NCBI GenBank assembly: GCA_001774945.1
Contig: MFBL01000043.1
Location: 2,782-66,781 of the forward strand
Source of the DNA: Candidatus Curtissbacteria bacterium RIFCSPHIGHO2_12_FULL_41_17
Lineage (GTDB): Bacteria > Patescibacteriota > Microgenomatia > Curtissbacterales > GWA2-41-24
Length of the DNA stretch: 64,000 nucleotides
Direction: 5' to 3'
The position numbers and the translations under genes are program-made. The first letter of the stretch is position 1, and each line of letters starts with the position of its first letter. The notes beneath the pieces are model-generated. The model was given only the letters and a program-made list of their open reading frames with translations. It made no database searches and had not been told where the DNA came from. Positions 1 to 13,613 of this stretch are shown in pieces.

Positions 1-1551
1 CGAAAGCTATTTAATAGCGTCAGCAAAAAGCTTACGCCTGATAATGCCTTATATGGGTTAAACCATATGCATCTTTATGGTATCAATGCGCAATTTAAAG
101 ACGTTTCATCAAAACTTGAAAAGCTTTTAGATTTTTTATTTTTGCCTTTGCACAAATTATTTTTTTCCCAAATTGATTTCGATTTTAAGTTGGGAAGGGC
201 TCTTTTATTACTGCCTTGGCTAAATAAAGCCGATTGTATTGTTGCCAATACCGACGGTATTGCTCTTGCAATTTGCCTTTTAAAACGTTTGAGGCTTGTT
301 AACAAACCTCTTATCTATGCTGTCGGTTTATTTTATATTCAGGGCAATTTAAAAGCTGCGATCGACAATGAAAAAAAAAGTCTTTTTTTTCATTTTTATC
401 AATGGCTTCTTGGAGCTGCAGATCAAATTCTTTTTCATGCGCAGATTGAAAAAGATAAGCTCGTAAAAATGGGAGTTTATAATCCTGCCGTTTGTACATT
501 TGTACCTATGGGTTCAGATTCAGCTTTTTTTAACTTGAATAAATTTCAAAAATTGAAAAAGCTAGAAAATATCGTAGTCTCTGTTGGTAAAGATCGGGCC
601 AGGGATTACAAAACTCTTCTTGAATGTGCGAAAAAAATTCCATATATATCCTTCAAGCTTGTTTGCCGAAAGATCAATATAGCCGGACTAAATATTCCAA
701 ATAACGTTAAAGTTTATTTCGATCTGCCTTATATAGAGGTAGCTAAATTATATAAACAAGCCTCTCTGATTGTTATCCCTATTAGAGAAATGCATCGTTC
801 CAGCGGACAGATGACTCTTACGGATTGTATCCAGTGTTCAAAGCCGATCATTATAAGTGATGTGGTCGGAGTTAGTCATTATCCTCTTAAGAATAATGTC
901 AATGTCATAAAGGTTGCCCCCGAAAATCCCCAACTTCTTAAAAACGCAATTTTAAAACTGCTCAAAAATAATCAGTTGCGAACTAAACTAATCAGAAACA
1001 CCAAAACGTTGGCCGTACGCTACAGCACTAAAAATTATGCTCGATCCGTCGCAAAAACTATTAAATTCACCACAGACGATTTAAGACTGAAACCGATTAA
1101 AAAACCCGACCTTGAATTTATGCGCAATTTGCGTAATCAAAATCGCAATTTTTTTATCCATAGTGATGCAATTTCCACAAGCGAAAAACAAGCAGGTTGG
1201 TTTGAGGAATATACAAAAAAACATGATGATTACACTTTCATTCTGACTAAAAATGATACAAAGATCGGTATCGGTGCAATTTATAACATTAATGAGAAAA
1301 AAAGGAATGCCGAAATCGGCCGTTTTATTATTGACCAAAAATTCCAAGGTCATGGACACGGCAAAATCTTACTTAAAAAAATTGAAGAACTTGCTTTTAG
1401 CCGGCTGGGCCTGGAAAGTTTATACCTTGAAGTTTTAACTGGGAATAAGACGGCAGTCAACTTTTATAAAAAAACGGGATTTATTAAGCAAAAAGATATT
1501 TTAGTAAATGGTAAAAAAGTGACGTTTATGATTAAAAAGAAAGAATCATGA
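1..1551 (+). CDS. Glycosyltransferase family 1 (GT4-like) fused to a C-terminal GNAT N-acetyltransferase domain. It is 5'-partial because the reading frame is open from base 1.
   Basis: The ORF at 67..1551 has no in-frame stop back to the window edge. The middle region (VSVGKDRARDY...SGQMTLTDCIQCSKPIIISDV) looks like a GT1 C-terminal domain. The last ~150 aa (GIGAIYNI...RFIIDQKFQGHGHGKILLKKIEELAF...AVNFYKKTGF) carry a GNAT motif A (Q-x-x-G-x-G). Confidence 0.55.
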   Translation, partial: RKLFNSVSKKLTPDNALYGLNHMHLYGINAQFKDVSSKLEKLLDFLFLPLHKLFFSQIDFDFKLGRALLLLPWLNKADCIVANTDGIALAICLLKRLRLVNKPLIYAVGLFYIQGNLKAAIDNEKKSLFFHFYQWLLGAADQILFHAQIEKDKLVKMGVYNPAVCTFVPMGSDSAFFNLNKFQKLKKLENIVVSVGKDRARDYKTLLECAKKIPYISFKLVCRKINIAGLNIPNNVKVYFDLPYIEVAKLYKQASLIVIPIREMHRSSGQMTLTDCIQCSKPIIISDVVGVSHYPLKNNVNVIKVAPENPQLLKNAILKLLKNNQLRTKLIRNTKTLAVRYSTKNYARSVAKTIKFTTDDLRLKPIKKPDLEFMRNLRNQNRNFFIHSDAISTSEKQAGWFEEYTKKHDDYTFILTKNDTKIGIGAIYNINEKKRNAEIGRFIIDQKFQGHGHGKILLKKIEELAFSRLGLESLYLEVLTGNKTAVNFYKKTGFIKQKDILVNGKKVTFMIKKKES

Positions 1552-5768: not shown

Positions 5769-7457
5769 ATGTCAGAATCTATTAAGATAAACCTCATGCA
5801 CTTCAAAGAAAACTTTGATACGAGAAAAAAGAATTTGATTGCAATAATTTCAATTATTGTTGTTACAGTCCTGTTAATTAGCCTGATGTTTCCATTAAAA
5901 AATCAAACAGCAGGTGATGATTATGCGTACGCTTATTCAGTTAAAAAGTCAATAGAAACTGGTCGACTGTACCTTTCTGAAGCAACTACAGCGGCTTTGG
6001 TTTTTCCGGTTCTTTGGGCAATTTTATTTTCTTCGTTTTTAGGCTTTTCATTTAAGACTTTACATATTTCTGTAGTATTTTTTTTACCCATCATTGCAAT
6101 AACAACTTATTTTCTACTAAAACAATTCAAATTAAAGCCACATTTAGCTTTTTTTGCATCACTATTTTTTATCTCAGTACCTTTTATTTTTCAATATGCG
6201 TTCACTTTTCTGACTGATATCCCTTTTTTAACATTAGAACTGTTAGTTTTGCTTTTTTTTGTCAGAGGATTAAAGGCAGATAAAAAAGGAGATCTATTTT
6301 TAGGTTCTATCTTTTCTGCTCTTGCTTTCTTAACAAGACAATTAGGACTCTTATTACCCTTGAGTGTTCTAGCTGCATATATAGTTACCTCCAGAATTAA
6401 TATAATTTCCAGAAAATATTTAAGTATTCTGGCAATCTCCGTACTGCCTGCGTTAACAGTTATCTTGTACATTTTAGTTTTTAGGGAAGGAACGGTGAAT
6501 CAATACATTTATGGCAAAAGAGTTTCCGAAACTATACATTCACTGCTTTTCGCACGATCTGCTTCCGTAGGACTTGAAGCATGGTCACGAATTATATACG
6601 TGGCTTTAGAATATTTTTGGCAAGCCTTAGGCCTTTTCTCACTGTTTGCCATAACAGTTATTGCCTCGAATTTCAAAAGATATTTAAGTAAAAAGGCTAT
6701 AAAATCTTTAATGTTAGCACTAATCGTCTTTATCGGCCTTGTACTTCTAGAAAAAATAGTCTATATGGAAAAAACCTATTTGGGTTTTCCGTTAGTGTTG
6801 TACAGGTATGAGAGTCTATTTCCGGTGCCTTGGCCTCATATATGGAAATACTTGGTCATGATAAGTTTTTTATTCGTAACAACAGAAAGTTTGTTAAACT
6901 TGAAGAACTTAAAATTTACAAGAACTGCTATCTTTCTTTTAACATCTTTTTTGCTTTTTCTCGGAATGAGTGCAATTGCTATCCCGTCTCATAAAAAATA
7001 CGTCATGTCCTTGTTGCCTTTCTTCCTAATTTACATCTGCTTATTATCCAAAAAGCTGAAAATTTCCGGACTTGTCGCCATACCAGTATTACTTTTTGTC
7101 CTAATCGACTCATTGCAAATGACAAAACTTAGATACGATACAAACGCACTTGCCCAGCAAAAAGGTCTTGAAATAGTTGGTAGAGGAATTGACATAGATA
7201 GAGTTCTGCCTAATCTGGAATATACATGGTCACTTTGGTATACAGTTGAAGATAAATATGCACAAGAGTTGAAAAAAGCCGGAGGTGATAAATTAACAGT
7301 AACATATCCCGTGACACCAGCCAACCAAGATTACCTAATTATTTCCAAGGAAAATATAAAATATGGAAATTTACCACAAAAATATTTATTTATCGAAAAC
7401 AGTCCATTTACTAGCTTATTTGTTTCTTCTTACCTTTTAACTATTAAAAAACTATGA
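5769..7457 (+). CDS. Polytopic membrane protein, probably a GT-C-fold (PMT/ArnT-like) glycosyltransferase. First of three tandem paralogs.
   Basis: Has an N-terminal TM helix followed by a DDYAYAYSV loop (DE-like motif) and more than ten hydrophobic segments. It shares blocks with the next two ORFs: TDIPFLTLE, LAFLTRQLG, FPVPWPHIWKY and SLQMTKLRYD. It also has a C-terminal soluble domain. Confidence 0.5.
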   Translation: MSESIKINLMHFKENFDTRKKNLIAIISIIVVTVLLISLMFPLKNQTAGDDYAYAYSVKKSIETGRLYLSEATTAALVFPVLWAILFSSFLGFSFKTLHISVVFFLPIIAITTYFLLKQFKLKPHLAFFASLFFISVPFIFQYAFTFLTDIPFLTLELLVLLFFVRGLKADKKGDLFLGSIFSALAFLTRQLGLLLPLSVLAAYIVTSRINIISRKYLSILAISVLPALTVILYILVFREGTVNQYIYGKRVSETIHSLLFARSASVGLEAWSRIIYVALEYFWQALGLFSLFAITVIASNFKRYLSKKAIKSLMLALIVFIGLVLLEKIVYMEKTYLGFPLVLYRYESLFPVPWPHIWKYLVMISFLFVTTESLLNLKNLKFTRTAIFLLTSFLLFLGMSAIAIPSHKKYVMSLLPFFLIYICLLSKKLKISGLVAIPVLLFVLIDSLQMTKLRYDTNALAQQKGLEIVGRGIDIDRVLPNLEYTWSLWYTVEDKYAQELKKAGGDKLTVTYPVTPANQDYLIISKENIKYGNLPQKYLFIENSPFTSLFVSSYLLTIKKL

Positions 7458-7520: not shown

Positions 7521-8255
7521 TTACTTTTTCGTCCCAAAACCGATAATCCATGCCCCGATTATGCTAGCTAGTGGTGTTGCAGCCAAAATATGATCAAAAA
7601 TATTATATATCGAAAGGAGTACCTCAGCCTTTTTATTTTCGAGGTATTTCATATTAATGCCGGAAATAATTTCGGTTTCAACATTAAAATCGAAACCTCC
7701 AAACACCTTCTCAATTTCACTAGTTGTCAGGAGCCTTTCATTTTCAGTTATGCCGACTCTTGTAGAAAAAGGTGAGCTTGGGCTTCTATATAACCAAAAA
7801 GCAGGATTATATTTATTTGGGTCGTAAGAGAAAAAATGACCTCCTGGCTTAAGTATCCTGGATGCTTCTTTGGCGACTTTTGAAAAGTCTGGAAAATGAT
7901 GTAATATCCCGGAGTAACAAATTAAGTCAACTGAAGCTGAAGGAAACCTTGTCTTTTCGATATCCCCAACTTCAAATTTTAAATTAGAATAATCTTGTTT
8001 AGCCCTCTTAATGCAGCCTTTGGAAATATCTAAACCGATAATCTCACTTTTTGGTAGTTCCTTTGCAAGTCTTGCCGTAAAAGCTCCGCTGCCGCAACCC
8101 ATGTCAATCACGTTTTTTATATCTGAAGACTTAAACTTTTTTTTCAAACGCGACAGAATTTTATAGTAGCCGCTATCATCAAATGCGTCATACCCGCCCT
8201 CGATATCAAATTTATCAAAAAACGTAACCTCTGCCTTTTTATTCTGGGCTGTCAT
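7521..8255 (-). CDS. Class I SAM-dependent methyltransferase.
   Basis: Carries VIDMGCGSGAFTARLA (motif I) and DLICYSGILHH. It is the only minus-strand gene in the first 25 kb. Confidence 0.65.
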   Translation of the reverse strand: MTAQNKKAEVTFFDKFDIEGGYDAFDDSGYYKILSRLKKKFKSSDIKNVIDMGCGSGAFTARLAKELPKSEIIGLDISKGCIKRAKQDYSNLKFEVGDIEKTRFPSASVDLICYSGILHHFPDFSKVAKEASRILKPGGHFFSYDPNKYNPAFWLYRSPSSPFSTRVGITENERLLTTSEIEKVFGGFDFNVETEIISGINMKYLENKKAEVLLSIYNIFDHILAATPLASIIGAWIIGFGTKK

Positions 8256-8348: not shown

Positions 8349-10073
8349 ATGAGATACTCAATTATCCAAAAATTCCTGCTTCTTGTACTTGCCTACAAAA
8401 AGAAAACACTCCAAATGCTTAAGTCTGACAAAAATATTTACTTATTCCTATTGGCCGTTTTTTTTGTAGTCTTAACTATCATGTTGCCTTTTAAAGACCA
8501 GTTATTTTCTGAGGATTTTGCCTATGCTCAAAGCGTAAGACATTTTATTAATACTGGAGATTTAAAAATATCAGAAAGAGTAGTACCAACTAGTATTACT
8601 CATATAATTTGGGGAACGGTTGTTACAAAATTTCTTGGGCTTTCTTTAGCAAATCTCCATTTTTCTGTTGTGCTGCTTTTACCGTTTTTGCTTTTTGCGT
8701 TGTACAAATTATTTAGCTTAATTGGCTGCAATAAAGAAAAAAGTTTTATCTTCACAATATTTTTTTTCTCAATACCCTGGATATTACAGCTAAGCTATAC
8801 ATTTACGACGGATATACCATTTTTGATCTTAGAAGTTTTTGCAATACTGTTTTATATACAGGGATTTAAAGAGAATAAAACGACGAGTTTGTTGATTGGA
8901 TCAATATTTGCCTCTTTAGCATTTTTAACAAGGCAGTTAGGGATACTTTTGGCATTTGCCGCTTTTGTTACTGTCATTCTTAGCAGTAACAGCAAAAATC
9001 AAAAAATTAAAAATGCACTATTATCCTTAGGCATTCCTCTACTAACTCTTTTTTTGTATTTATGGTGGTTAAGTTTTCCTGAAAATAAAACCATCGCCCA
9101 ACTTAGCACGTATCGAGAGCTCAAAGAAACTTATTTTTATTCGTTTGCGCTTAATATTTTGATAGAGAATCTTGCAAGGATTATTCACACAACCTTAAAT
9201 CTGACCAGCCAAGCGTTAGGCTTATTATTTCCTATTATTTTATTGTTACTTTTAACTAACTTGAAAAGAGTATTTAATCTTGCGAATAAAAATAAACGCA
9301 GATTCACAGTTGCCACAATTGTTGCTGTAATTATCTATGCTATCGACATTATTAATTTCAGAAAAGAATACACTGTTGGTTTCCCGTTTAATATCTACCA
9401 ATATGAAAATCTTTTGCCAGTTCCTTGGGCACATATTTGGAAATATATAGTGTTAATTAGTCTCCCAATACTTAGCTGTACAATTTATCTACAATACAAA
9501 AATGTAATTAAACTTAACAATTATCAACGATTTATATCTTTATCCTTTGTTTTTTTAGCAATTCCAACAGTGATCCATGTTGCAAAATGGGATATATATA
9601 TAATTCCGTTTTTACCGCTCTCAATGTTATGGATTGCTAGTTCGACAAAAAAATTCACGCTAAATTTAAAACTTTCCTTGGTTGTTGTTTTAATATTGTT
9701 ATTAGATTCAGTGCAAATGACAAAATTAAGATATAACGAGTCAGCTCTCATATGGGAAAAAGCTATGAAATTAGTAGACAGCGGAATAAGTCCTGCCGAA
9801 ATTGACCCAAGTAACAATTTTGGCTGGTACTACTGGTTTTATTACGAAAAGTTGGCAAGCGATTCTATTAAATCTAACGACGGTAATAAGGATAAATCAG
9901 ACTACGGATTTGTTATAGCAAAACCCGACCTTCCCAAATATAGAATCTATACTGAAAGAATGATTCGTTATAGTAGCCTAAACACTACAAATTATAAAGT
10001 TCAAACGATTCCGCTTAGAAGTTTCTTGGTTAACTCGAAAATATATTTTATGCAACTTGATGAAAGATACTAG
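8349..10073 (+). CDS. GT-C-like polytopic membrane protein, second tandem paralog.
   Basis: Carries EDFAYAQSVRHF, TDIPFLILEV, LAFLTRQLG, LPVPWAHIWKY and SVQMTKLRYN, all collinear with 5769..7457. Confidence 0.5.
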   Translation: MRYSIIQKFLLLVLAYKKKTLQMLKSDKNIYLFLLAVFFVVLTIMLPFKDQLFSEDFAYAQSVRHFINTGDLKISERVVPTSITHIIWGTVVTKFLGLSLANLHFSVVLLLPFLLFALYKLFSLIGCNKEKSFIFTIFFFSIPWILQLSYTFTTDIPFLILEVFAILFYIQGFKENKTTSLLIGSIFASLAFLTRQLGILLAFAAFVTVILSSNSKNQKIKNALLSLGIPLLTLFLYLWWLSFPENKTIAQLSTYRELKETYFYSFALNILIENLARIIHTTLNLTSQALGLLFPIILLLLLTNLKRVFNLANKNKRRFTVATIVAVIIYAIDIINFRKEYTVGFPFNIYQYENLLPVPWAHIWKYIVLISLPILSCTIYLQYKNVIKLNNYQRFISLSFVFLAIPTVIHVAKWDIYIIPFLPLSMLWIASSTKKFTLNLKLSLVVVLILLLDSVQMTKLRYNESALIWEKAMKLVDSGISPAEIDPSNNFGWYYWFYYEKLASDSIKSNDGNKDKSDYGFVIAKPDLPKYRIYTERMIRYSSLNTTNYKVQTIPLRSFLVNSKIYFMQLDERY

Positions 10074-11718
10074 AAGCATTGCACTAATACTTTTAATAAG
10101 TGCCCTTTTTATTATACTCATGCTGCCATTGCAAAACAGCGTCTACAGTGATGATGTAGCTTTTTCTCAAAGTGTAAGACATTTGTTGCAAACTGGAGAA
10201 CTAAAAGTTTCGGAGTATACTGCTGCAAGTTCTATAAGCCATATTTTATGGGGGTCTCTATTCGCAAAGTTATTAGGATTTTCATTTACGTCACTGAATA
10301 TTTCCGTAATAGTACTTTTGCCGATCCTGCTTATTAGCTTTTATAAATTACTAAGGATAATTGGTGTCTCTACAGATAGAGGTTTCATCTTTACACTTTT
10401 TTTCTTTTCAATTCCCTGGATACCGTTTTTAACATACACATTCATGAGCGATATACCATTTTTAACCCTGGAAGTGTTAACAATCTTGTTCTATTTAAAA
10501 TACTCAAAAGATAAAAATGTCAAATACCTAACAGTCAGCCTGGTTTTTGCAAGCATTGCGTTTTTGGCAAGACAACTTAGCTTGGCACTCATCGCAGGTA
10601 TTGTAACTAGCATTTTATTAAACACAAAATTTTCTCTGAAAAGTGTAAAAAAAATGATCTTACCCCTTCTGATTCCACTGGTCACTATAATTTTTTATCA
10701 TATCTGGTTATCGGCGCCCGGCAATAAAACTATGCCTCAATACTTTTATGAAGATCAAATCAACGAAGTTTTAAAAAACTTCGTTCCGCTTACTAACATT
10801 TCTTTAAACATGCGCGTTTTGAACCTTTCTCTTTTTATGCATCGTACCCTTAATTACGCAAGCCAGGCGATGGGCTTACTGTTTCCGCTAATCTTTGTTT
10901 TAATTATTTCAAATATACCAAAAGTAAAGAGATTTATAAAAAGAAATTTTAGAATTATTATTTTTTCAACAACAGTAGCCGGATTGCTATACTTGCTGGA
11001 CGTTATTAATTTTAGAAAGGAATATTATGCCGGATTCCCACTTAACGAATACGAATACGAATCTTTATTCCCGATTCCATGGGCTCACATATGGAAATAT
11101 CTTGTAATCCTATCAATACCTTTTTGGTCTGTACTAATGGCAAAAACCTATACAAACGGATCGCAAAAAATAGACGCGCAAAAAAGATACCTTATAATTA
11201 CTTTTTTAGGTGTTCTCTTTATGACCGTGATTACTTTTCAGTCGTGGGATCGTTATGTACTTCCGTTGCTACCATTTGTGTTTATTTATTTAGCAAGAGT
11301 TACCAAGACATTAAAATTCAACTTATTAATATCAGTTCCAATCGTCGCATTATTTTTGATCGACGCTATTCAAATGACAAAATTAAGATATGATGAGGCC
11401 GGACTGCTTTACAAAATTGGGAATCAACTAGTACAGCAAGGAGCCGAACCTTCGACAATCGACTTAAACAGAGACCAGGGCTGGGATATCTGGTTCTATT
11501 ACGAGAAAGGAGTTCAAGAGCAAATTAAAGAAGCAAACGGAGATAAAACTAAGATAAATTTCCGCGTGTACCCCTTACCCAAAAAGAATATAAAATATGG
11601 CATCTACACGGACAGGATGATTAAATATCAAACCTTGAATATCGACGAAGATAGTTTCTTTATCATTCCTTTTAAAAGTTTGTTCGTCTCTTCAAAATTA
11701 ACATTTGTAAATTACTGA
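10057..11718 (+). CDS. GT-C-like polytopic membrane protein, third tandem paralog.
   Basis: Carries DDVAFSQSVRHL, SDIPFLTLEV, IAFLARQLS, FPIPWAHIWKY and AIQMTKLRYDE. It overlaps the previous paralog by 17 bp. Confidence 0.5.
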   Translation: MMKDTRSIALILLISALFIILMLPLQNSVYSDDVAFSQSVRHLLQTGELKVSEYTAASSISHILWGSLFAKLLGFSFTSLNISVIVLLPILLISFYKLLRIIGVSTDRGFIFTLFFFSIPWIPFLTYTFMSDIPFLTLEVLTILFYLKYSKDKNVKYLTVSLVFASIAFLARQLSLALIAGIVTSILLNTKFSLKSVKKMILPLLIPLVTIIFYHIWLSAPGNKTMPQYFYEDQINEVLKNFVPLTNISLNMRVLNLSLFMHRTLNYASQAMGLLFPLIFVLIISNIPKVKRFIKRNFRIIIFSTTVAGLLYLLDVINFRKEYYAGFPLNEYEYESLFPIPWAHIWKYLVILSIPFWSVLMAKTYTNGSQKIDAQKRYLIITFLGVLFMTVITFQSWDRYVLPLLPFVFIYLARVTKTLKFNLLISVPIVALFLIDAIQMTKLRYDEAGLLYKIGNQLVQQGAEPSTIDLNRDQGWDIWFYYEKGVQEQIKEANGDKTKINFRVYPLPKKNIKYGIYTDRMIKYQTLNIDEDSFFIIPFKSLFVSSKLTFVNY

Positions 11719-13613
11719 TGAAATTAATCAGAGCCAATTTTCTCATTATTACCATCTTTTTCGGTGTATTAATTACTCTCAGTCTTCCGCATATATTCCG
11801 CTATCTTGCACTCGGTTCAAAATACACGACGCTCATCATAAGCGGGCCATCAGCAACTGCGACAAGCTGGGAAGAAACTTATACTTACGCAACGGAAGCA
11901 AACAGAATTAAAAACAACCAGCCAATCAATGACCCGTATATTTATGAATACAGAAACAAGCCTTCTCCATTAATCTCCGAATTAGTTCCGTCTGTTCTTT
12001 TGGGAGTACCCGCCAAAGTATTATCAACATCTTTAGTTTTTATACTGGCAAAAATCTTCGTTTTACCGCTTACAATTTTCGTATGGTACCTTATAGCCAG
12101 ACAACTTGGCTATTCAAAAAAAGCCAGTATTTGCGCAGCCCTAACAAGTTTTATCTTACAGAAGCTTTTTGTCTACATTCCATATTTTCCTAAAATATTC
12201 TCTTACGAATTTGATGGCTACCTTGAAGCCCAAAGAATTTATTTTCCCCTGATATCCTCGTTTATTACATCAATCACTATCTTATTTATTTTAAAAATTC
12301 TGGATAATAGATTCCCACGGCCTAAAGGCCGTGGTTCTCTAGTCTTCGCTCAAAATTCGCTTCATCTTCGGCAGATACAGTGCCATGCGGTCCTCGTCCT
12401 TCGGACTGCGGGCCTAAAATGCTGGAGTTTTTTCGCTCAGAATAAAAAAATGAAGTATGTACTATTAGCCGGAATATTACCGGGCTTACTTTTTTATACC
12501 TACTTTTTTGCATGGACCTTAATTTGGTCGTCACTAATATTATTTTTAATCAGTTTGAAAATATCCGGCTGGCACATCCAGGCAAAAAAATTACTTGCTG
12601 TTCTGGCAGTTGGATTATTAATCGGCCTTCCTTATTTTCTAAACTTACTGTTCTTTTATCAAAATCCATCGAGAAGCGATTTCATTTTAAGGACCATAAG
12701 TTTCCCAATAATTGATTGGAATATACCGATAATATTCAGGTTTTTGACATTTTTTTGTTTGATTACTTTTTTTGGTAAAAAATGGTTAAAAAGTCCCGAC
12801 AAAAGATTATTAATCTTAATCTACTTAACGGCGGCATTTTTGCCCTTAGTCTCAAAAATAATTTTTCAGGCGGATAACCAAACAGACCATTGGTACGAGC
12901 GTTTCTTATACCCATTATCAACCTTTTTACTTGTTCTTTTTGCGGCCGACATAAAACAACTAGGCCTCAAAATCAAAAATTTTATTTTTCTGGCATTTTT
13001 ACTTTTGGCAATTCTGAAGTTTGATATTAGTATTTACAACGAGATCAAAAGACCATCCGAATATTTCACAATTGGTCTACCCCGACTAGATCTTTATCAT
13101 TGGATGGCCAAAAATCTGCCAAAAAACAGCGTAGTTGGATCACTAAGTTTTAAGGAAGAAATCTATTTGACGGCATACACGCCTCTCTATGCTTATCTGC
13201 CTCAAGCATACAAAACAATAGCGCCGACAAAAGAAATTACGGATAGATATTTATTTCTGGCTCGCCAAATCGGTGTTGGTCCCGAATTTATAAAACAAGT
13301 CTTTATCATGCCCGACCAGTCTTACAGTAACCCTGATTCAATTCAGGCAAAGGACGGTAACGGCTTTATGGTTCTTCTCGGTATCGCCAACCATTTCGAC
13401 AAGTTTCCATACCCGTCTCACTACAAAATACAACAAGATTTAGTCCAGTCGCTCAACAAATCGATAAATCAAATCGGCCGTCTTGATTATTTATTGATAG
13501 GCCCATTAGAAAGAGAAGCATCTCCAGATTTTGCCAAAAACACCAAATGCCAGCTTATATTCCAAAATGTCACATACAAACTCTACCGCTTCCACAATTG
13601 TTCTGTCCGGTAA
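11718..13613 (+). CDS. Large polytopic membrane protein of unknown function. It contains an atypical GC-rich in-frame insert at ~12312-12433.
   Basis: A 631-aa ORF with many hydrophobic helices. The internal segment RFPRPKGRGSLVFAQNSLHLRQIQCHAVLVLRTAGLKCWSFFAQNKK is basic and non-hydrophobic, and its codons are GC-rich, unlike the flanks. Confidence 0.4.
   Translation: MKLIRANFLIITIFFGVLITLSLPHIFRYLALGSKYTTLIISGPSATATSWEETYTYATEANRIKNNQPINDPYIYEYRNKPSPLISELVPSVLLGVPAKVLSTSLVFILAKIFVLPLTIFVWYLIARQLGYSKKASICAALTSFILQKLFVYIPYFPKIFSYEFDGYLEAQRIYFPLISSFITSITILFILKILDNRFPRPKGRGSLVFAQNSLHLRQIQCHAVLVLRTAGLKCWSFFAQNKKMKYVLLAGILPGLLFYTYFFAWTLIWSSLILFLISLKISGWHIQAKKLLAVLAVGLLIGLPYFLNLLFFYQNPSRSDFILRTISFPIIDWNIPIIFRFLTFFCLITFFGKKWLKSPDKRLLILIYLTAAFLPLVSKIIFQADNQTDHWYERFLYPLSTFLLVLFAADIKQLGLKIKNFIFLAFLLLAILKFDISIYNEIKRPSEYFTIGLPRLDLYHWMAKNLPKNSVVGSLSFKEEIYLTAYTPLYAYLPQAYKTIAPTKEITDRYLFLARQIGVGPEFIKQVFIMPDQSYSNPDSIQAKDGNGFMVLLGIANHFDKFPYPSHYKIQQDLVQSLNKSINQIGRLDYLLIGPLEREASPDFAKNTKCQLIFQNVTYKLYRFHNCSVR
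12312..12433. other. GC-rich structured element (possible small RNA or miniature insertion) embedded in-frame in the ORF.
   Basis: The span is roughly 50-60% GC against a ~33% background. There is a perfect 8-bp hairpin ccacggcc-taaa-ggccgtgg (12315..12334). A second hairpin gtcc-ttc-ggac lies at 12396..12406. A T6 run follows at 12428..12433. Confidence 0.3.

Follow-up and report, generated by a model that had tools for sequence, protein, structure and literature searches.

The 64,000-nt stretch of DNA analysed here (the window) comes from a contig of Candidatus Curtissbacteria bacterium RIFCSPHIGHO2_12_FULL_41_17 (MFBL01000043.1), and one of its genes, encoding a 631-residue membrane protein, contains a GC-rich, hairpin-forming segment (12306-12446). 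This segment is very probably one copy of a small, non-autonomous and selfish dispersed repeat of ultra-small groundwater bacteria of the Candidate Phyla Radiation (CPR, or Patescibacteria), and the odd peptide encoded at this point of the protein would be its read-through translation. A miniature mobile or repetitive element inserted in frame was among the explanations listed in the initial annotation of this DNA, and it is the one supported by our results: the segment is missing from orthologues, an empty site matches to the base, and at least 22 sharp-ended copies exist elsewhere.

The segment is a real and non-random feature of the window. Its best 100-nt window (12305-12431) has 58% GC against a mean of 36.6% (standard deviation 5.8%) over the 64 kb, about 3.7 standard deviations above it, and ranks second among the GC peaks. 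Composition alone is not unique to the insert, because several conserved enzyme genes in the 64 kb also reach 52-60% GC. As RNA, the plus strand of 12300-12445 folds at -50.7 kcal/mol compared with -36.9 ± 3.2 for 200 dinucleotide shuffles, none of which was as good (z = -4.3); the minus strand gives z = -2.9. The small motifs initially described are all present, namely the perfect 8-bp inverted repeat ccacggcc-taaa-ggccgtgg (12315-12334), a second hairpin gtcc-ttc-ggac (12396-12406), two cttcgg motifs (12366-12371 and 12399-12404), a T6 run (12428-12433) and an ATG at 12450. The open reading frame (ORF) 11718-13613 indeed stays open through the insert and encodes the peptide quoted for it. 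The size was underestimated: the GC-rich element is real, but the roughly 115 bp assigned to it are too few, as the repeat unit covers 12306-12446 and the net insertion is 135 nt.

Comparison with homologues locates the insertion. In an alignment of 14 sequences, 12 of the 13 homologues, each 39-66% identical, have a gap of about 45 residues between ...ILKIL-DN and KKM-KYVLL..., and all 13 are single colinear proteins across the insert site, where they carry DNKKM-like residues. At the DNA level, the orthologous locus L059, encoding P0004, is an empty site that reads CTAGATAATAAAAAAATGAA (longer stretch, TTATTTATTTTAAAAATTCTAGATAATAAAAAAATGAATTATG), and in the filled site of the window 135 nt stand between ...CTGGATAAT and AAAAAAATGAA.... 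Once 12309-12443 are removed, the window reads CTGGATAATAAAAAAATGAA (longer, TTATTTATTTTAAAAATTCTGGATAATAAAAAAATGAAGTATG) and matches the L059 empty site to the base. The orthologues that lack these residues have lengths of 575-593 residues; the database relatives of the 631-residue protein (n = 19) are 549-593 residues long, save for one near-identical sequence. Eighteen contigs encode the exact 631-residue protein. Six contigs from six different ENA/JGI samples agree in all 251 nt around the insert; their record names (ANAN16-..., groundwater) suggest aquifer metagenomes, and from these names we read a link to the Rifle aquifer data set.

The placement of the net insert is ambiguous by up to 4 nt, as AATA is present at both junctions. 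The empty site has a single AATAAA and the filled site AATA...AATAAA, and GAATAAA ends 16 of the 19 family copies with a readable 3' end. Because AATA is found at both ends of nearly all copies, a target-site duplication is inseparable from the termini of the element. In three copies the left end is CATA, TATA or AAGA and the right end still AATA, which mildly disfavours a strict 4-bp duplication. The junction sequences would fit two readings that the data do not separate: AATAAA is a strict target of which 4 bp are duplicated, or the element, whose own end is AATA, inserts 3' of AATA with no duplication. In one copy (L042, ~50-70, minus strand) the 3' junction is CAGAATAGATTAG, where the flank repeats the first 8 nt of the element (AATAGATT) and not AATAAA.

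Elsewhere, copies with unrelated flanks were located at no fewer than 22 separate loci, in Curtissbacteria, Saccharimonadales and aquifer metagenomes. When 185,579 species-representative genomes were scanned with the hairpin 21-mer, 32 matches were obtained, against about 0.3 expected by chance (estimated from the size of the collection), and six stretches proved to be full-length relatives of the whole insert. Full-length copies are found in two Candidatus Curtissbacteria metagenome-assembled genomes (MAGs; L012, L033), in one Saccharimonadales MAG that has two (L022, L026), and on a low-GC contig binned as 'Gammaproteobacteria' (L010). On this last contig (CAYQTP010000113.1, 'uncultured Gammaproteobacteria', 35% GC) the element adjoins a PMT_2-like gene, followed by a run of N, and the contig is probably mis-binned. 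A scan of JGI metagenomes with a 24-mer added 13 distinct loci, and searches with the element-encoded peptides recovered more copies from ENA, one of them from a Hainich aquifer sample. The collection scans detect exact matches only and the copy numbers are lower bounds; the JGI scan missed Ga0209542_10037985 (L001) and Ga0209343_10014460 (L007), both of which hold the query 24-mer, so that collection was not exhaustive, and the species-representative scan did not return the window locus.

Over the element these copies are 89-96% identical to that of the window, and their flanks have nothing in common with the window or with each other, re-sampled identical loci aside. Flank GC ranges from 35 to 48%, indicating that several host genomes are involved. 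In an anchored flank alignment of 22 copies, information drops from about 1.7-2 bits to less than 0.5 bits just outside AATAGATT... and ...GAATAAA, and because it collapses exactly at both ends the repeat unit is discrete and precisely delimited. The nhmmer profile of the family matches the window at 12306-12446 (E = 9e-28), and neither this profile nor blastn-short detected a second copy within the 64 kb.

All other copies with sufficient flank are intergenic or touch a gene end, and only the locus shared by the window and L001 lies mid-gene. Flanking genes include mreB, rpsB, thyX, a pilin gene, divIC, methyltransferases and PMT_2-type transferases; no transposase, recombinase or reverse transcriptase was detected among the 20 flanking ORFs scanned, in 1-15 kb around each copy. 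At about 13 of 17 informative loci, as well as at L063, the gene at the 5' end of the element is on the opposite strand and starts ~5-60 nt away, as judged by ORF inspection only. The 3' neighbour is often on the opposite strand too, and the element is mostly antisense to local transcription, the window copy being sense; antisense-placed copies include L012, L026, L033, L043-L045, L047, L048, L050, L054, L055, L057 and L063. Three loci are alike further upstream (L012 6112-6140, L050 650-679, L057 1160-1178; …CGAATTTATGCKAATAGAT…), and ATGCGAAT-like tandem motifs abut the 5' end; this likeness may represent a 5'-extended subfamily or insertion footprints. When the peptides of both open frames were used to look for other mid-gene in-frame copies, only ORFs of 44-114 residues were retrieved. 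At the protein level, ENA sequence P0025 has a YchF/Obg-type GTPase-like start (MVGLPNVGKSTLFNAL..) followed by the antisense-frame peptide of the element and a stop, and P0028 has the sense-frame peptide midway in a 113-residue ORF; both are possible further intragenic insertions.

The family consensus is 99 nt long (AATAGATTCCCACGGCCTAAAGGCCGTGGTTCTCTGATCTTCGCTCAAAATTCGCTTCATCTCCGGCATGAATGCCGGAGTTTTTTCGCTCAGAATAAA) and is laid out as AATAGATTCCCACGGCCTAAAGGCCGTGGTTCTCTGATCTTCGCTCAAAATTCGCTTCATC, an 8-bp stem with a TRAA loop, and TTTTTTCGCTCAGAATAAA. Hairpin 1 has the consensus CCACGGCC-TAAA-GGCCGTGG, lengthened by AGA/UCU pairing. Its stem is invariant in the 16 aligned copies, in part an ascertainment bias, as the same sequence had been the search query; it is also largely kept in copies reached through the encoded peptide. 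The spacer that follows contains TTCGCTCAAAAT (12345-12356), a direct repeat of TTCGCTCAGAAT (12432-12443). Hairpin 2 is in the family an 8-bp stem with a TRAA loop whose sequence is free to vary (CTCCGGCA/TGCCGGAG, CCCCGACA/TGTCGGGA, CCACGGGA/TCCCGTGG, CTCCGTCC/GGACGGAG, CCCCGACT/AGTCGGGG). Compensatory double changes affect five of its eight stem pairs, its covariation score was reached in none of 500 column shuffles, and sliding the partner columns cuts pairing from 94% to 23-40%. Judged from this alignment, the structure of hairpin 2 is maintained by compensatory changes.

A run of five or six T right after hairpin 2 is conserved in the family, and together with T6 the hairpin looks like a putative intrinsic terminator. 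Two canonical copies were scored as terminator-like (L001 4887-4906 and L044 983-1002; 8 pairs, a 4-nt loop and TTTTTT); the window copy was not scored by the consensus scanner, its loop, enlarged by 42 nt, being longer than 8 nt. The tail of the element is CGCTCAGAATAAA. Hairpin 1 begins 9 nt from the 5' end and hairpin 2 finishes 19 nt before the 3' end. Terminal inverted repeats are absent: the first 35 nt score 5 against the reverse complement of the last 35 nt, a value equalled or exceeded by 81% of shuffles. The two halves of the element align to each other (p about 0.0005), each consisting of a hairpin, a T-rich stretch and TTCGCTCARAAT; as this alignment is significant, an ancestral unit of ~48 nt seems to have been repeated in tandem to form the element. 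Copies with a single unit occur at L046 (2514-2555; hairpin 1 joined to CAGAATAAA) and L062 (6-50; hairpin 2, T-run and CGCTCAGAATAAA), and L062 also has a full copy (297-395) ~250 nt from the half copy.

Searches for known RNA and processing elements were negative. Rfam gave no gathering-level match in the 64 kb, generic hairpins only for the window copy at E <= 10, and nothing at E <= 5 for four canonical copies. ARAGORN detected no tRNA or tmRNA in the window. An intein or self-splicing intron was rejected, as the insert is far too small (45 residues, 135 nt) and has no Rfam intron match. The promoter consensus was not found in or beside the element above shuffle expectation, and the flank alignment of 22 copies shows no conserved promoter upstream of AATAGATT.

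The window copy is itself a variant. It carries an additional 42-nt segment with a nested hairpin; in the alignment the canonical family lacks this segment, as does strain L001 at the same site. L001 has a plain 93-nt insertion at the identical position and is otherwise 100% identical over 6.6 kb outside a polymorphic patch. A copy at a different locus (L045) starts the 42-nt extension, with its first 11 nt (...CTCCGGCAGATACAGTGCC), where the available sequence ends; since the start recurs there, the extension is, on this sequence comparison, a propagated subfamily and not a one-off. In L063 (~150-245, minus strand) a 36-nt hairpin (TTTTTGT-GAA-ACAAAAA) lies inside the TAAA loop of hairpin 1, and hairpin loops seem to be hot spots for the gain of nested hairpins. 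The polymorphic patch begins inside the element and extends 113 nt downstream, with nothing upstream, and looks like either a short recombination or gene-conversion tract or a site whose mutability is linked to the element. The two alleles differ in nine codons (four synonymous, five non-synonymous), too few for a selection test.

The net lengths account for the open frame. Both the 93 nt inserted by the family and the 42 nt of the extension are divisible by three (93 + 42 = 135), and the consensus is stop-free only in sense frame 0 (NRFPRPKGRGSLIFAQNSLHLRHECRSFFAQNK) and antisense frame 0, that is, in one of three frames on each strand. The window copy is read in sense frame 0. As the net length is a multiple of three and one sense frame is free of stops, the ORF stays open; about one in three random landings in a coding AATAAA would have the same outcome, without need of special adaptation. 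The peptide of 45 residues has seven Arg/Lys and no Asp or Glu, and its net charge of +7 bears out the earlier description of the insert as basic.

The host protein is predicted to be a membrane glycosyltransferase of the GT-C fold. The AlphaFold2 model of its 631 residues has a mean confidence (pLDDT) of 78.5 and a pTM of 0.82, and its Foldseek matches are AftA, PglB/OST and ArnT (E from 4e-6, TM-score about 0.45). The insertion point is a short loop (...ILKILDN|KKM...) between two transmembrane helices, where the insert replaces the basic DNKKM-type loop. In the model the insert (residues 199-241) has a pLDDT of ~30 and no secondary structure and lies between helices 176-195 and 245-258, so a disordered loop between transmembrane helices is predicted; by the positive-inside rule this loop is probably cytoplasmic.

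A copy of the element has thus inserted at AATAAA within the GT-C gene, at a loop between transmembrane helices. We propose that the insert is translated and tolerated as a disordered, probably cytoplasmic loop. An intrinsic terminator within a gene can act unless a closely trailing ribosome blocks its folding. Translation through the element would thereby keep the sense-oriented hairpin 2 and its U6 from terminating transcription inside the gene. The element would spread selfishly, being mobilised in trans. Its lack of terminal inverted repeats, its subterminal hairpins and the AATA that almost always flanks it on the left make us tentatively favour a mobiliser that recognises structure, possibly an HUH/Y1 single-strand enzyme (IS200/IS605- or REP/RAYT-like) or a small site-specific recombinase; a DDE cut-and-paste transposase seems less likely. 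A by-eye check for IS608-like complementarity between guide and cleavage sites was unconvincing.

Several points weigh against this selfish-repeat reading. No enzyme, autonomous parent, excision allele or circular intermediate was seen, and mobility is deduced from distribution only. Copy number looks low, with one or two exact-hairpin matches per representative genome and one copy in 64 kb, unlike a bursting MITE (a miniature transposable element with inverted repeats). Identity of ~90% across distant CPR lineages could reflect a selected RNA function, and a sense-oriented terminator-like hairpin could cripple the gene. An open frame has a prior chance of about 1 in 3, as does an in-frame 42-nt indel, translation of the insert is presumed, and the four synonymous against five non-synonymous differences are too few to show purifying selection.

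Two alternatives are unlikely in our view. The element could primarily be a functional small RNA (sRNA) or terminator module, multi-copy and horizontally spread, the window copy being an intragenic attenuator, an RNA source or an accidental landing. The element has the architecture of a typical trans-acting sRNA, with a stem-loop at the 5' end, a seed-like single-stranded region rich in C and U, and a Rho-independent terminator; hairpin 2 covaries and is followed by the conserved T5-6 run, the unpaired spacer is conserved as well as the hairpins across distant hosts, and most copies are antisense to both neighbours, as an independent transcription unit might be. Yet conservation starts abruptly at AATAGATT with no conserved promoter upstream, the canonical copies examined have no promoter-like site in or beside them, there is no Rfam family, and the unit extends 13 nt past the U-run and hence is not simply a transcript; truncated single-unit and stem-decayed copies also occur, as expected of selfish repeats. 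For the structured RNA or riboregulator first proposed the evidence is divided: the compensatory changes and terminator-like form of hairpin 2 with its T6 speak for it, and the missing Rfam match and upstream promoter against it. It is similarly improbable that the insertion effectively killed the gene, the frame being open by luck and recency, transcription stopping at hairpin 2 and T6, and the upstream GT-C paralogues covering for the loss. The terminator-like hairpin is indeed oriented sense, just upstream there are three GT-C-like paralogues, no second mid-gene copy came to light, suggesting that such insertions are normally purged, and the allele substitutions are not clearly mostly synonymous. 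Against it, 631 codons are open in a genome of 37% GC, diverged alleles with 93-nt and 135-nt inserts are both in frame without stops, the remainder of the protein is modelled confidently as GT-C, and the identical protein is found in many samples.

Two further alternatives have next to no probability left. That no foreign DNA is involved, the segment being either a cytoplasmic loop native to this lineage or the product of a fusion between two genes, would agree with the open frame and with the position between two transmembrane helices. In other genomes, however, the 99-nt sequence recurs at 20 or more unrelated loci, most of them intergenic, and the homologues are single and colinear, with only DNKKM-like residues at the site; the homologue alignment, the dispersed copies and the L059 empty site refute this explanation, including the fused gene pair initially considered. 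The chimeric or contaminating assembly segment, also considered then, could draw on the local GC jump and on the ability of hairpins to cause mis-joins, but it is refuted by the 251-nt region shared by six contigs from six samples, by the exact protein on 18 contigs, and by a precise in-frame insertion with the same ends as other copies. At the opposite extreme, and quite unlikely in our view, the family might represent mobile modules of a new 'hairpin plus terminator' class, horizontal among unrelated CPR lineages, independent of terminal inverted repeats, targeting AATAAA and using hairpin loops as landing pads, and the window copy might attenuate a surface-glycosylation enzyme from within its gene in a translation-dependent way. 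If this were true, the 42-nt hairpin in hairpin 2, the 36-nt hairpin in hairpin 1 of L063 and the recombination patch would be traces of ongoing activity.

The features of the insert and its host gene are collected in Table 1. The host gene is the last of four consecutive genes for GT-C or PMT_2-like membrane proteins (5769-7457, 8349-10073, 10057-11718 and 11718-13613). A methyltransferase gene on the opposite strand (7521-8255) separates the first two, and the last three have start and stop codons that overlap or abut; the genes neighbouring the host gene match PMT_2. This run sits in a glycan-biosynthesis cluster of more than 60 kb with DegT aminotransferases, epimerases and GT1, GT2 and GT4 glycosyltransferases.

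Table 1. Features of the inserted element and its host gene (window positions; all located features are on the plus strand).
Feature	Position	Strand	Description
Host gene	11718..13613	+	631-residue multi-pass membrane protein, predicted GT-C glycosyltransferase fold; ORF list, homologues, AlphaFold2, Foldseek
Full repeat-element copy	12306..12446	+	AATAGATT...GAATAAA; 141-nt variant of the 99-nt consensus, sense relative to the host gene; family conservation
Net inserted DNA	12309..12443	+	135 nt (45 codons), encodes RFPRPKGRGSLVFAQNSLHLRQIQCHAVLVLRTAGLKCWSFFAQN; protein alignment and L059
Left junction AATA	12306..12309	+	Copy of a 4-bp target-site duplication or target tetranucleotide; AATA here in 18 of 22 copies
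Hairpin 1	12315..12334	+	Perfect 8-bp stem CCACGGCC/GGCCGTGG, TAAA loop; extended by UAGA (12308-12311) with UCUA (12338-12341)
C/U-rich spacer	12335..12365	+	Predicted single-stranded, ~30 nt in the family; fold and alignment
Hairpin 2	12366..12427	+	Outer stem CTTCGGCA (12366-12373) with TGCTGGAG (12420-12427); loop holds a nested hairpin here
Extra segment with nested hairpin	12374..12415	+	42 nt (14 codons); stem GCGGTCC (12387-12393) with GGACTGC (12403-12409)
T6 run	12428..12433	+	Directly 3' of hairpin 2; the pair resembles an intrinsic terminator, sense to the host gene
Right junction AATAAA	12441..12446	+	Second AATA (12441-12444) plus the rest of the target hexamer
Polymorphic patch relative to L001	12341..12556	+	All 10 substitutions and the 42-nt indel within 216 nt; the other ~6.4 kb identical
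Predicted empty-site form of the window locus			CTGGATAATAAAAAAATG
Predicted tryptic peptides from the insert			GSLVFAQNSLHLR, QIQCHAVLVLR, CWSFFAQNK

Some matches were not retained as members of the family. The 21-mer CCCACGGCCTAAAGGCCGTGG is also the core of a different, abundant repeat of Bacteroidota (L008, L011, L013-L039; Mucilaginibacter, Sphingobacteriaceae and others), in which hairpins form inverted pairs ~80-120 nt apart flanked by GGCTAAAGCC hairpins, in a REPIN- or MITE-like arrangement with up to 10 matches per MAG. These matches were rejected, as only the hairpin is common and it lies within a different inverted-pair repeat; the 21-mer that the Bacteroidota and CPR repeats share may be a coincidence or point to a common origin. 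Four scans of viral contigs (hairpin, 5' core, 3' end and inner 42-nt hairpin) gave chance or unrelated matches only; L040 and L041 have just the hairpin in common with the family, and L058 a chance 18-mer.

The genomes of CPR bacteria are tiny, about 1 Mb, and to our knowledge they are regarded as poor in mobile DNA. We found no description of MITE-like repeats, or of repeats like the Rickettsia palindromic elements (RPEs), in these bacteria in the literature, whose coverage here was incomplete, so that this is absence of evidence only. Being ~90% or more identical in Curtissbacteria, Saccharimonadales and other aquifer genomes, the element offers a handle on horizontal exchange, and it may point to a mobilising enzyme still to be identified. 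The in-frame copy would illustrate how, in nature, a membrane enzyme can gain a loop from selfish DNA. In genome annotation, odd GC-rich 'insertions' can be put down to this family, as can the many spurious ORFs of 40-110 residues over its copies. It is an attractive target of follow-up work for its presence in several CPR lineages, its terminator-like hairpin with covariation, its variants with a hairpin nested in a loop, and its mechanism of mobilisation.

As a selfish dispersed repeat, the element belongs to a family not catalogued before that appears to work like known RPE- or MITE-like repeats, and by description it most resembles the RPEs. Described by Ogata et al. (2000; summarised in PMC10969869), they are hairpin repeats of small size that sit in frame within genes of a reduced genome, and nearly half of the copies first reported in R. 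conorii lay inside ORFs (PMC10969869). Both are hairpin-forming repeats of ~100-150 bp in a reduced AT-rich genome, located in intergenic as well as in-frame ORF sites, and in ORFs they supply extra peptide that the surface of the protein is believed to tolerate, and for neither is the mobilising enzyme known. They differ in that the CPR element is mid-gene in only 1 of 22 or more copies, so that frequent ORF insertion is not observed, and consists of two tandem hairpin units with a terminator-like 3' hairpin, whereas an RPE is one long palindrome; the hosts are of different phyla, and no sequence relationship is expected.

Like the classical MITEs (Correia, ERIC, RUP and BOX; PMC10969869), the element is small, non-coding, multi-copy, sharp-ended and strongly structured, is mostly intergenic with occasional in-frame fusions, and belongs to a type in which elements insert into one another; its 99 nt, its 22 or more loci with unrelated flanks and its lack of an ORF of its own are of MITE size and dispersal. 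Unlike them, it has no identifiable parent insertion sequence, AATA being at most a candidate target-site duplication, and its lack of terminal inverted repeats led us to reject identity with a classical MITE. The pneumococcal repeat SPRITE (PMC10969869) is likewise dispersed, with a core like an intrinsic terminator (hairpin and T-run); it differs in host and sequence, and the CPR element adds a sequence-invariant 5' hairpin and a conserved spacer.

The subterminal hairpins, the absence of terminal inverted repeats, the adjacent AATA (on the left in 18 of 22 copies) and a possible insertion without true duplication recall elements derived from IS200/IS605 and the repetitive extragenic palindromes (REP/REPIN) moved by RAYT. 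In contrast to these systems, no TnpA or RAYT gene is found in the 1-15 kb around the copies, the two CPR hairpins are unlike each other and one is freely variable, and neither a REP head of GTAG type nor inverted REP pairs are present. A last parallel is with the mitochondrial double-hairpin elements and GC clusters that Paquin, Laforest and Lang reportedly described in 2000 (Mol Biol Evol 17:1760, cited in PMC2670323). Those are organellar, shorter and unrelated in sequence; by analogy only, they too would be GC-rich two-hairpin mini-elements of AT-rich reduced genomes, intergenic and occasionally in coding regions.

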